Positions 4,923 to 41,683 of a stretch of DNA of 59,649 nucleotides are shown here, in pieces. The DNA lies in NCBI GenBank assembly GCA_026398175.1, contig JAPLTJ010000144.1, positions 1-59,649 of the forward strand. Direction: 5' to 3'. The stretch is from Verrucomicrobiia bacterium. GTDB lineage: Bacteria > Verrucomicrobiota > Verrucomicrobiia > Chthoniobacterales > UBA6821. Every line of letters begins with the position of its first letter. Position 1 is the stretch's first letter. The notes beneath the pieces are model-generated. The model did not search any database. It was given only the letters and a program-made list of their open reading frames with translations, and had not been told where the DNA came from. A program made the translations under genes and the position numbers.

Positions 4923-5492
4923 ATGAAAATTTTTGAGGCACGCAATGAAATGGTCAGAGAACTCATTCCACTAGAAAGTGTGATTTGTGAAATTGGCGTT
5001 TTTAAAGGAGACTTCGCGAGTAAGTTGCACCAACTTCATCCCAAGCACCTCTTTCTCTGCGATCCTTGGGACAACGGCCTGAGTTATAGTGGGGATCATG
5101 ATGGCCAAAATGGAAACATCTATCATGCCTCTTCCCTCTACGAACATGTTGTTACCCTTTTTTCTCAAGAAGCAACAGTCTCCATTCATCGAGAAAAATC
5201 AGAAACTTTTATCCCGAAATTAGCTGATGCCTCGCTGGATGCAGCTTACGTTGATGGCGATCATTCTTACCAAGCTGTTAAAGCCGACCTTCATGCACTC
5301 TATCCTAAAATAAAAAAAGGAGGATTCCTCATGGGGCATGATTATGAATTCAATCCCAACAAGGCTCCATATGATTTAGAGCCGATGATCTTGGAAGTTG
5401 CGCGCGCCGTGAATGAATTTTGTCAGGAAAAAAATTTATCTATCTTTGCAAAAACGAACGATGGCTGTGCCAGCTTTGCGATTCGGTGCTAG
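4923..5492 (+). CDS. class I SAM-dependent methyltransferase (Methyltransf_24-like)
   Basis: EIGVFKGDF glycine-rich SAM loop and YVDGDHSY motif; stop TAG lies inside the terminal CTAG of repeat D1. Confidence 0.65.
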   Translation: MKIFEARNEMVRELIPLESVICEIGVFKGDFASKLHQLHPKHLFLCDPWDNGLSYSGDHDGQNGNIYHASSLYEHVVTLFSQEATVSIHREKSETFIPKLADASLDAAYVDGDHSYQAVKADLHALYPKIKKGGFLMGHDYEFNPNKAPYDLEPMILEVARAVNEFCQEKNLSIFAKTNDGCASFAIRC

Positions 5493-5630
5493 AGCATTTT
5501 TAAAAATTGTACAGCCTCTCATTGCGGCGTCACTCCGGTGCTCGCGTCCTCAAGTATCAGAATACACTGCGAATCTCTGCTCCTCGTTCCTGGCACTGCA
5601 TCGGCTATAATATATTTTAAAACGCTCTAG
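5489..5630 (+). mobile_element. palindromic element family D, copy D1 (short form, ~142 bp)
   Basis: Terminal inverted repeats CTAGAGCATTTTTAAAA / TTTTAAAACGCTCTAG; its core sequence recurs in D2 and D4. Confidence 0.85.
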
Positions 5631-9404: not shown

Positions 9405-9420
9405 AAATTAAATTTAATCC

Positions 9421-9612
9421 AATCGCTGTAAGTCATTACGGAACGCTTCATCACAGCTCGACTCACAGCAGCCAAGGCGTGCTTTCTAATTTGACAAAAT
9501 TTCCAATCCGGAGGATGCAATCCTAGACGAAGCAAGGGCCACTGCTGTTGCTCTGCTCGTCGAAATAAAAATTCATTCCAAATGAGACTGACTTGCCGAC
9601 GCCACGCGGAGC
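9421..9612. repeat. 192-bp direct repeat, copy 1 (gene fragment)
   Basis: 190/192 identical to 11121-11312; corresponds to the C-terminal ~64 codons of the DUF2334 gene but has no start codon. Confidence 0.95.
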
Positions 9613-11103: not shown

Positions 11104-11875
11104 TCATTGTTTCCTTACCCAATCGCTGTAAGTCATCACGGAACGCTTCATCACAGCTCGACTCACAGCACCCAAGGCGTGCTTTCTAATTTGACAAAAT
11201 TTCCAATCCGGAGGATGCAATCCTAGACGAAGCAAGGGCCACTGCTGTTGCTCTGCTCGTCGAAATAAAAATTCATTCCAAATGAGACTGACTTGCCGAC
11301 GCCACGCGGAGCGAGCTGACGCTATAAACCATACTTTGAGATTTAAAAAAAGCGGGAGCATCTTTTTTTAAATCAATGACTCCATGCAAGCGCGTCGTGT
11401 AGAAAAAACCTTCATCCGCGACGGCTCTCTCGGCTTCCTTGCTGAGCAGCCAGGCTGGCGCAATAAAGCCTGTCATCGCATTCAAATCAAATCCTGCTTT
11501 TTCAAATTCTTCTTTTCCTCTTTTTAATTTAGCTCGAGCCTCATCGTAACTCAGATCATAAAATTCCCCCTCGCCACGCGTGTAATGCTGCGTCATCCAG
11601 CGCGTCCAAAGCCTCTCGTGCGCGGCAGCAGGCCGCAAATGAGACCATCCATGAAGAACAATTTCATGTCCCTCTTTTTGCTTTTCTTGAAGCCATTCCA
11701 CGAAGGCAGGAGCCGTTGTTAGTAATTCCCTTTCGTGATAATGAGGAATGACCAATAGAGAACAACAAGAAATACCAGATTTTTTTAAATCATCCATCAT
11801 CTCCTGCACTATTGCTTGTGTGCTGGGAGTGACATCGTGAATGGAAACCACGAGGGCGGGCGACTGTATTTGCAT
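11104..11875 (-). pseudogene. DUF2334-type polysaccharide-deacetylase-like gene carrying a frameshift
   Basis: ORF 11273..11875 has SIHDVTP...HGWSH. The expected C-terminal part (SARSAWRR...LRLGLHPPDW) is in another frame, ORF 11104..11361. The frame switch is near 11315-11330. Confidence 0.6.
11121..11312. repeat. 192-bp direct repeat, copy 2 (within the 3' part of the DUF2334 pseudogene)
   Basis: See copy 1; mismatches only at 9439/11139 and 9475/11175. Confidence 0.95.
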
Positions 11876-40580: not shown

Positions 40581-41555
40581 ATGAAAGAATCACTCGAAGA
40601 TCATTGGCATGACATTCTTTCCAAGGCGGCAAGAGGCTTGCAGCTTGATGCTGCAACGCTAACTCAAAAAAGCCATGGGAATGAAAAAAAAACGAGAGAA
40701 CTTTTTGAAGGAATGTGCCATCCAGCAACACTTGCCACCGTGGCTCCAGCACTTCATCTCGATGGCAATGCTCTTCTTGCCATTGCTGCTGATCATTATC
40801 ATCCCGGTCCGATCATCATGCCTCGCAATTTCAAACGGTTCACGTCATCCTACCACGGCATGCAGGTCAACTCCTACCTTCTCTGGAGCGAGGAAAATAA
40901 AAAAGCGGTTGCTTTTGATACTGGCGCAGACATGACTCCTTTGTTAAAAACATTGGAGCAACATCAACTCAAGTTGGACCTGATCTTACTCACACACGGT
41001 CACAGCGATCATGTTTGCCAATTAGAAAATTTGATCGCAACAACAGGAGCTCCAGCCTGGATCAATGAAGCCGATCTGATCTCGCACGCGCAACCTTTCT
41101 CCTTTCCTCGCGCTAGACCCCTTTTAAAACTCGCTGATGCTAGTAAAGTGCCAGGAGACTCCGGCGCGCAGACCCGCAGTGTACAAAACGTACTCGAGGA
41201 CGCGAGCACCGGAGCGACACAGCAATTTGCAGCAGCAGTAGAGTTTGGAAAGAGGTCTAACTGGACACTCGATAACACCATCACCATCGAAGCGCGCCCC
41301 ACACCCGGCCATTCTCCTGGCGGGACAACGTATGTCGTTCGTGGCATGTCATCGGAGATTGCTGTTGTCGGCGATGCTCTTTTTGCTGGCTCCGTCGGAG
41401 GCATCCCTCCCAGCAGCTATGAAGCGGCTTTAAAAGCAATTCGAAAAAATATCTTATCTCTTCCTGATGATACCATTTTAAGCCCTGGCCATGGACCGCT
41501 GACAACCGTTGGCGATGAGAAGGCTCGTAATCCTTTCTTCGCTCGCGCTAAGTAA
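40581..41555 (+). CDS. MBL-fold hydrolase (glyoxalase II-like) carrying an in-frame repeat insertion
   Basis: THGHSDH and TPGHSPG motifs; about 48 codons between them (41113-41260) are a copy of repeat family D. Confidence 0.85.
   Translation: MKESLEDHWHDILSKAARGLQLDAATLTQKSHGNEKKTRELFEGMCHPATLATVAPALHLDGNALLAIAADHYHPGPIIMPRNFKRFTSSYHGMQVNSYLLWSEENKKAVAFDTGADMTPLLKTLEQHQLKLDLILLTHGHSDHVCQLENLIATTGAPAWINEADLISHAQPFSFPRARPLLKLADASKVPGDSGAQTRSVQNVLEDASTGATQQFAAAVEFGKRSNWTLDNTITIEARPTPGHSPGGTTYVVRGMSSEIAVVGDALFAGSVGGIPPSSYEAALKAIRKNILSLPDDTILSPGHGPLTTVGDEKARNPFFARAK
41113..41260 (-). mobile_element. family D, copy D4, inserted in frame inside the MBL-hydrolase gene
   Basis: CGCAGACCCGCAGTGTA...TACTCGAGGACGCGAGCACCGGAGCGAC is the reverse complement of the D1/D2 core; boundaries +/- a few nt. 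Confidence 0.8.
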
Positions 41556-41683
41556 AAATGTAGAAGCTTGACTTTTCCACTCTTCTCTTTGATGATCTGA
41601 TCCCCAATAAATAAGAAATTGTCTTTAAATTCGCAGCCTTAGTAGAATTTTAAGATAATTTCCAGGAAGCAGGTGAAAATTAT

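Follow-up and report, generated by a model that had tools for sequence, protein, structure and literature searches.

A TA-ended palindromic element lies in frame in a metallo-beta-lactamase-fold hydrolase gene of a Chthoniobacterales genome and probably belongs to a gene-colonizing family

Introduction

Imperfect palindromes of 100-170 bp that form one long hairpin and occur in many copies include the ERIC/IRU, Correia (NEMIS) and RUP elements; ERIC, moreover, has in-frame intragenic copies and is highly conserved across genera. The closest described systems are the Rickettsia palindromic elements (RPEs; RPE-1 to RPE-10), palindromes of ~105-150 bp found between and inside genes (Ogata et al. 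2000, 2002, via PMC10969869). RPEs lie in frame in unrelated housekeeping genes, to which they add a conserved peptide predicted to be compatible with the host fold (PMC10969869, PMC3184786). A 2024 review considered this in-frame frequency in Rickettsia unusual, its occurrence elsewhere being merely supposed (PMC10969869). In Coxiella burnetii, QMITE1 and QMITE2 overlap or extend open reading frames (ORFs), supply stop codons or C-terminal residues, and sometimes lie in frame inside genes, and TA at the ends or as the target duplication is a general feature of bacterial MITEs (miniature transposable elements with inverted repeats) (PMC5896051). Repetitive extragenic palindromes (REPs) measure 20-40 nt and carry GTAG/CGTC heads (PMC3733652). 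Here, we analyze a palindromic repeat, family D, in a stretch of 59,649 nt from a Verrucomicrobiia bacterium of the order Chthoniobacterales (assembly GCA_026398175.1, contig JAPLTJ010000144.1), hereafter the window. One copy lies inside the gene of a metallo-beta-lactamase-fold (MBL) hydrolase, and we consider it very probably a lineage-specific, in-frame MITE insertion from a family that recurrently colonizes genes.

Results

A repeat copy inside the hydrolase gene

The window holds three family-D copies and one remnant in 59.6 kb (Table 1). The original prediction placed one of them at 41113-41260, within an ORF that stays open, and described it as the reverse complement of an intergenic element. 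Its limits were one base off at each end; the open ORF and the orientation were as described. The intragenic copy, whose minus-strand sequence is TAGACCTCTTTCCAAACTCTACTGCTGCTGCAAATTGCTGTGTCGCTCCGGTGCTCGCGTCCTCGAGTACGTTTTGTACACTGCGGGTCTGCGCGCCGGAGTCTCCTGGCACTTTACTAGCATCAGCGAGTTTTAAAAGGGGTCTA, aligns over its full length with the intergenic copies D1 and D2 and is oriented opposite to both. The window has three exact matches to the core 19-mer CTCCGGTGCTCGCGTCCTC, at 5533, at 56927, and, on the minus strand, at 41196, compared with none in 100 shuffles. We built an nhmmer profile from 17 copies of other genomes only, leaving the window sequence out to avoid circularity. This profile matched 41118..41258 on the minus strand over model positions 2-140 (E=1e-32), a highly significant nucleotide similarity to the family represented by D1 and D2. 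The intragenic copy is 91% identical to the copy in a PF00144 hydrolase gene at locus L018; its identity to copies inside other genes of other metagenome-assembled genomes (MAGs) is 91% and 84%. As single-stranded DNA it folds into one long hairpin (z = -4.0 and -4.6 for the two strands).

The segment is specific to this lineage of the hydrolase. Among 5.8 billion proteins searched, we obtained 3734 homologues, of which the best 119 besides the query are 253-335 aa long, mostly ~275. Every other sequence in the alignments of 14 and 118 sequences has a 49-column gap opposite residues 177-225 (147 nt), and the insert occurs in none of the 117 other aligned homologues (~253-298 aa long). The in-frame addition had been recognized correctly, with a size of 49 residues relative to orthologues rather than the ~48 first given, and it lies, as had also been stated, between H139-x-H141-x-D143-H144 and H244. 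The closest relatives, P0002 (81% identity) and P0003 (78%), are syntenic orthologues (loci L001 and L002) that share with the window the gene order ABC transporter, MBL, rpsU, epimerase, and their DNA is uninterrupted at the site. It reads TTTCCT TGC CCC TGG ACA and TTCCCT CAC AAT TGT AAA, where the window reads TTTCCT CGC GC-TA-GACC...GGTC-TA-AC TGG ACA. The insertion is missing from relatives whose flanking DNA is 86% identical.

We propose that the element entered at a TA dinucleotide in the MBL coding sequence after the split from the nearest sampled relatives. The insertion would have been a multiple of three, namely 144 nt, and a possible difference of one codon would account for the 147 nt counted against the orthologues. 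Because of this length, and because the subfamily is stop-free in the frame that was hit, the gene would have stayed open, and its product would be an MBL hydrolase with a 49-residue added loop.

Table 1. Family-D copies and associated features in the window.
Feature	Position	Strand	Description	Evidence
YcbL/GloB-type MBL hydrolase gene (host)	40581..41555	+	324 aa	open ORF
Intragenic family-D copy, "coding" subfamily	41114..41259	-	146 nt, TA at both ends, one long hairpin	nhmmer, alignment, fold
Conserved core 19-mer CTCCGGTGCTCGCGTCCTC	41196..41214	-	coding strand reads ..E-D-A-S-T-G..	exact match
Codons for residues 177-227	41109..41261	+	hold the 49-aa lineage-specific insert RARPLLKLADASKVPGDSGAQTRSVQNVLEDASTGATQQFAAAVEFGKR(S)	protein alignments, AlphaFold2, HMMER split
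Intergenic copy D1	5490..5629	+	140 nt, TA..TA	nhmmer 5491..5628, E=6e-32
Intergenic copy D2	56884..57105	+	222 nt, with nested 84-nt GC-rich module	nhmmer, split match
GC-rich module nested in D2	56975..57058		84 nt, three small hairpins	
Stand-alone GC-rich module	49872..49951	+	outside any family-D copy, 78% identical to that of D2	direct-repeat family D17
Remnant copy between MBL gene and rpsU	41615..41662	.	two outer arms only; deletion between ATTCGC direct repeats removed ~100 nt of the center	

The host protein and its predicted structure

The MBL ORF matches Pfam Lactamase_B (E=1.3e-18), and Foldseek and HMMER recovered the PDB entries 7ev5, 2xf4, and 7l0b, which are YcbL/GloB-type glyoxalase II enzymes. 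The HMMER alignment to PDB is broken exactly at the insert, into 94-162 and 232-320. At the N-terminus, the protein has a helical extension of ~90 aa that is conserved across its family, and all the family-invariant residues (H139, H141, D143, H144, H244, D265, and H304, according to both alignments) are present. The identical 324-aa protein is found on three further independent assemblies, four in all, so the insert is not a one-off assembly error. A promoter and terminator scan around the gene gave no signal apart from the hairpin's own.

AlphaFold2 (AF2), run with the 118-sequence alignment, predicts an intact MBL fold in which the insert is a low-confidence loop (mean predicted local distance difference test score, pLDDT, 90.2; predicted template modeling score, pTM, 0.85). 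Confidence drops at the insert only, with pLDDT of 48-56 for blocks 181-220 and above 90 for the remainder. The insert is placed between predicted strands 170-173 and 227-229, with one short predicted helix at 210-222. It is a predicted extra loop, probably flexible, that lies between two beta strands and apart from the conserved metal ligands, and we infer that the MBL protein is made and active.

A dispersed family of hairpins with TA ends

Family-D copies measure 138-146 nt between their TA ends, too short for a transposase gene. TA is found at both ends in nearly all copies, the ends pair in every copy, and the inverted repeats span the whole element. The outer arms of different subfamilies are unlike in sequence, with complementarity kept. 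In an alignment of 17 sequences, 10 of the 14 pairs of the arm helix are changed on both sides, and the arm covariation score is 0.37, as against 0.18 for shuffles (0/500) and <=0.17 for slid controls. Such a pattern is consistent with terminal repeats that co-evolve or with a hairpin under selection.

To map the distribution of the family, we scanned one genome per GTDB species for the exact 19-mer. Among Chthoniobacterales/Spartobacteria MAGs, it was found 12 times in JAIEQF01, six times in JBMOFC01, twice in CAYYAN01, and once in CAIWMF01; chance matches were also obtained in high-GC genomes. A metagenome scan provided ~18 more contigs with the core, of 42-49% GC. BLAST searches of the element against PLSDB plasmids and phage genomes gave no match. 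Overall, family D is scattered across a clade of Chthoniobacterales (Verrucomicrobiota), mostly as intergenic copies.

A comparison of two dxs loci captures an empty and a filled site. The empty site at locus L027 reads ...CTTCTGC-TA-GAAGTTC..., and the filled site at locus L035 reads ...GTTGAGC-TA-GAGCATTT...AAACGCTC-TA-GGAGTTC..., for a net lengthening by 138 nt (46 codons) and a duplicated TA. We therefore interpret the element as a TA-duplicating MITE.

Recurrence inside unrelated genes

At the DNA level, we assembled 35 near-full-length copies in Chthoniobacterales-type DNA, sampled via the exact 19-mer. Six of them lie in frame inside identified genes, namely the MBL hydrolase of the window, uvrA (L011), the PF00144 serine hydrolase (L018), miaB (L021), the homoserine dehydrogenase gene hom (L034), and dxs (L035). 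Two further candidates, L071 (a GT9 glycosyltransferase) and L051, were rejected as intragenic, as the start codon is likely downstream of the element. The insert falls between Pfam domains in miaB and hom and within a domain in uvrA and the PF00144 hydrolase.

Copies are translated in at least three reading frames or orientations. The first reads ..GAQTRSVQNVLEDASTGATQQFAAAVEF.. in the MBL gene, L018, and L021; the second reads ..TRGREHRSDA.. in uvrA, with the related ..TRGHEHRSDA.. in dxs; and the third, from the opposite strand, reads ..CGVAPVLASSS.. in hom. Two of the six frames of the MBL-type subfamily are stop-free. The net lengths of intergenic copies are 138, 140, 143, or 144 nt, and those of intragenic copies are necessarily multiples of three, a pattern that a survivorship filter would give. 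Under such a filter, purifying selection would spare only those insertions that are in frame, free of stops, and placed in tolerant loops or domain linkers, which would explain why a sizeable minority of copies have survived in housekeeping genes.

The proteins tell a similar story on a larger scale. A word-indexed search with the 48-aa peptide alone gave no match. An exhaustive HMMER search with a 51-aa peptide against 1.84 billion representatives (E ≤ 1e-3) gave 77 matches, of which ~70 are genuine; the named members of these protein clusters are Chthoniobacterales/Verrucomicrobia MAG proteins. On inspection, P0121, P0133, and P0166 were rejected as unrelated repeat proteins; P0155 and P0188 are probably unrelated repeats too, as judged on partial, low-identity matches only. 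About 35 carriers are at least 200 aa long and have the whole peptide embedded at varied positions, and many of the short matches are spurious ORFs called over intergenic copies. Scanning 30 of the ~35 long carriers against Pfam with curated cut-offs identified Aldolase_II, Pkinase, Inositol_P, MiaB, FGE-sulfatase (two proteins), the pseudopilin N_methyl, STAS, RecN, ComEC (two proteins), Ank, Patatin, LpxB, a PurK-like ATP-grasp, and HemD. The peptide search thus adds 14 Pfam families to the six DNA-level genes, for ~19 unrelated protein families overall. A second, divergent MiaB (P0130, from another protein cluster) has two diverged copies at the L021 insert position, which suggests long persistence and tolerance of the miaB insert.

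The original prediction had held that "this genome" has an element family that proteins can tolerate. The inference of tolerance is strengthened by five more DNA-level insertions and ~70 protein clusters, but the family is not confined to one genome, extending instead over a clade of Chthoniobacterales MAGs.

How the element may have moved

One MAG with family-D copies also encodes an IS630-family transposase (L025:~60-1075; HTH_Tnp_IS630, E=1e-21; DDE_3, E=5e-27), and the corresponding insertion sequence (IS) sits at a TA within the loop of a family-D copy. Given the MITE interpretation, an IS630-type transposase is a reasonably likely mobilizing enzyme, and family D would then be mobilized in trans by an IS630/Tc1-mariner-type transposase. 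As a separate observation, the L025 transposase gene is split at 510-675 by a MITE of ~165 nt with the terminal repeats of the IS itself (TATAGTCAAATTACTTAGAA), which is clearly derived from this IS630-family element.

Several observations weigh against a TA-duplicating MITE with an IS630-type partner. A single clean empty/filled pair underlies the TA duplication, and in one subfamily three copies have three-base flanking repeats (TAC, TTA, and TAA) instead. We set aside a 3-bp target duplication since the clean dxs pair and most copies favor TA. At the MBL site, the orthologues vary in the very codons involved, and a TA duplication there requires a pre-insertion gene one codon longer than its relatives. 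Conservation is higher in the center of the element than at its termini, the reverse of typical MITEs; for the core it is exaggerated, however, because copies were ascertained by the exact 19-mer, and the peptide search reveals more diverged cores, for example GAQKLSVQELLDASSTGAT. The termini of the L025 IS630 (TATAGTCAAATTAC) differ from those of family D (TAGAGCATTTTAAAA and variants), and neither the window nor the 71 fetched loci yielded an autonomous element with family-D ends. Similarly, a search for family-D terminal repeats outside recognized copies gave two weak strays only, and Pfam revealed no transposase among ten mid-sized ORFs of the window.

The alternative that best withstands the evidence, improbable as we consider it, is spread without a transposase, by hairpin-driven recombination, template switching, or gene conversion, in which case the TA ends would be part of the element. 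Such spread has sometimes been suggested for RPEs, and we know of no mobilizing mechanism identified for them. It would fit the missing partner IS with matching ends in the window and fetched loci, the well-conserved center, which is the opposite of typical MITEs, and the subfamily arms that differ with complementarity kept. The same can be said of the copy shortened by deletion between short direct repeats, and of the core in gut Alphaproteobacteria (described below), which forms 123-nt tandem units and has an outer palindrome overlapping native truA codons. However, the empty dxs site has one TA and the filled site two, the ends are sharp, copies are dispersed at unrelated sites, and TA-targeting IS630-family machinery is present in one of the same MAGs. 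We retain the TA-duplicating MITE as the preferred interpretation.

Fate of the inserted loop

A further point against a tolerated insertion is that it may have disabled the hydrolase, leaving a young pseudogene that has not yet acquired stops. A 146-nt mRNA hairpin could attract double-strand RNases, and the insertion is recent enough to be missing from relatives at 86% flanking DNA identity. Yet the ORF is open over its full length and encodes every residue invariant in the family, AF2 predicts an intact fold, and the sequence is identical in four assemblies. In addition, similar inserts persist in the essential genes dxs, miaB, uvrA, and hom, and the two diverged copies at the same position of the divergent MiaB P0130 suggest long-term tolerance. 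We thus regard a pseudogene as unlikely.

Less likely still is the opposite possibility, that the loop was co-opted for a function in the MBL protein, for instance as a lid or interaction surface. Its position between the two metal-binding motifs and the short AF2 helix at 210-222 would suit such a role, but ~19 unrelated protein families carry this peptide, at positions that are unrelated as well, and its AF2 confidence is low (pLDDT 48-56). We infer that the loop is neutral rather than useful. Finally, that the 49 residues are an ancestral hydrolase loop lost by the relatives, with only a secondary or chance likeness to intergenic repeats, is hardly credible: although the sequence between the two conserved motifs varies across homologues, none of 117 has the segment and loop length is otherwise uniform, and the segment fits the repeat-family model over its full length (E=1e-32), shares 91% DNA identity with the insert that another genome carries in an unrelated gene, has TA at each end, and forms a hairpin.

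A related core in gut Alphaproteobacteria

The 19-mer scan also matched low-GC MAGs labeled Alphaproteobacteria, with L042 and L070 explicitly from gut metagenomes. The shared core layout consists of the 19-mer, then GTAC-loop-GTAC, then CTGCGGGGCTGCGCTCC. At L028, L036, L038, L039, and L041, the ~60-nt core lies in frame in the N-terminal variable loop of truA, where it comes with none, one, or two additional 123-nt tandem units and the outer palindrome extends over native codons (KIVVFGAGRTD). Two more in-frame copies of the core fall within the N-terminal part of a hemN-like radical SAM gene (L070:9480-9800); a third, diverged L070 copy, at 2310-2440, lies within no ORF of more than 106 aa. 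Beyond the 19-mer used for the search, the alphaproteobacterial core and the window copy are identical at 28 of 39 positions, and core identity is ~85-88% between environmental (freshwater and other) Chthoniobacterales and gut Alphaproteobacteria. The nhmmer profile matched the alphaproteobacterial cores with E = 6e-11 to 4e-8 over model positions 40-98.

The core is thus common to two phyla, with in-frame gene copies in each, and the sharing may reflect horizontal transfer or constraint on the core. We tentatively raise the possibility of a cross-phylum superfamily of TA-targeting palindromic repeats, in which the ~60-nt core at the hairpin tip is under a functional constraint of its own; it may, for example, be bound by a transposase or host factor, or act as an RNA or DNA structure. 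If so, "coding palindromes" in the style of RPEs would be a widespread, partly horizontally transferred way to add protein loops and not a rickettsial curiosity.

Other copies and repeats in the window

The first TA of D1 is the TA of the TAG stop of a methyltransferase ORF (4923..5492), whose end is unchanged because the flanking TA and the first G of D1 restore the stop (5490-5492). D2 is matched by the profile in two pieces, 56885..56974 (E=3e-26) and 57059..57104 (E=9e-7), on either side of its GC-rich module. Such modules are nested in many family-D copies of other MAGs (L033, L034, L037, L052, and L055), and in some proteins (P0136 and P0163) the module is translated in frame within an already inserted element.

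In the relatives, the spacer between the MBL gene and rpsU holds a diverged full copy (L001:6882-7027 and L002:6905-7048) where the window has its remnant; the flanks of the L001 copy can be aligned with the window base for base, and those of L002 are more diverged. The remnant exemplifies a decay route of these hairpins. The spacer itself (41556-41683) is almost identical between the window and L001, with adjacent coding DNA 81-86% identical, which suggests, from this sequence comparison, that the rpsU leader or promoter may be strongly constrained.

Additional repeat families populate the window densely, at many sites. Examples are CGTCATTCCTGCGGACGCAGGAATCCAG palindromes (2647, 30125, 33013, 35603, and 50071), inverted pairs of GGGATGGAAGCGATGGAAGGGAT (3456/3534, 20092/20216, and 36804/36930), and 7-nt tandem tracts (GTAAAGA/GTAACGA and CTGTAGC) flanking genes (8199, 16443, 22059, and 23568). 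A 194-nt direct repeat with 99% identity is found at 9419-9612 and 11119-11312, 1.7 kb apart, and a 126-nt tandem repeat (~2.5 units) at 47329-47645 lies in ORF 47106..47816, which has no Pfam match. No Rfam match above the gathering threshold was obtained anywhere in the window.

Discussion

Family D agrees with bacterial MITEs in length (below ~400 bp), terminal inverted repeats, target duplication (one pair), and dispersed copies. With the IS630/Tc1-mariner (Stowaway-like) MITEs, it shares a TA target and its duplication, but its termini are unlike those of the only IS630 seen (L025). REP/REPIN elements, which are mobilized by RAYT transposases, are likewise short palindromic multi-copy repeats able to form hairpin doublets, but to our knowledge they make no target duplication; family D is 140-146 nt long, lacks a GTAG/CGTC head, and duplicates TA.

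In anatomy, a TA-flanked palindromic hairpin in many copies, family D resembles ERIC, Correia, and RUP elements. It differs in its host lineage and in its share inside conserved enzymes, which is apparently far higher, and the ERIC2 primer motif is absent from the window. The effects of QMITEs fall mostly on gene ends or hypothetical proteins, whereas the family-D insertions lie in the interior of well-conserved enzymes. Searching the literature for the core (as a 17-mer) and for MITEs of Verrucomicrobia turned up nothing.

The practical consequences reach annotation, as such elements lengthen proteins, give rise to spurious short ORFs, and break up domain matches in MAGs. Family D also offers a tractable system for studying how these elements move, which protein positions tolerate insertions of ~48 residues, and whether new protein loops arise from them.

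The nearest counterpart remains the RPEs, to which family D is likened by behavior and not by sequence. Like them, it occurs between genes and in frame in many unrelated genes, at positions that the fold tolerates. Unlike them, it resides in Verrucomicrobiota/Chthoniobacterales rather than Rickettsiales, shows a documented TA target duplication, and is read in several frames and both orientations. The phenomenon is therefore of the same sort as that of RPEs and not a new kind of system. In-frame colonization of genes by palindromes has usually been held to be a Rickettsia specialty, and family D provides a second, independent, and extensive case from another phylum, with a TA duplication and a candidate enzyme class.

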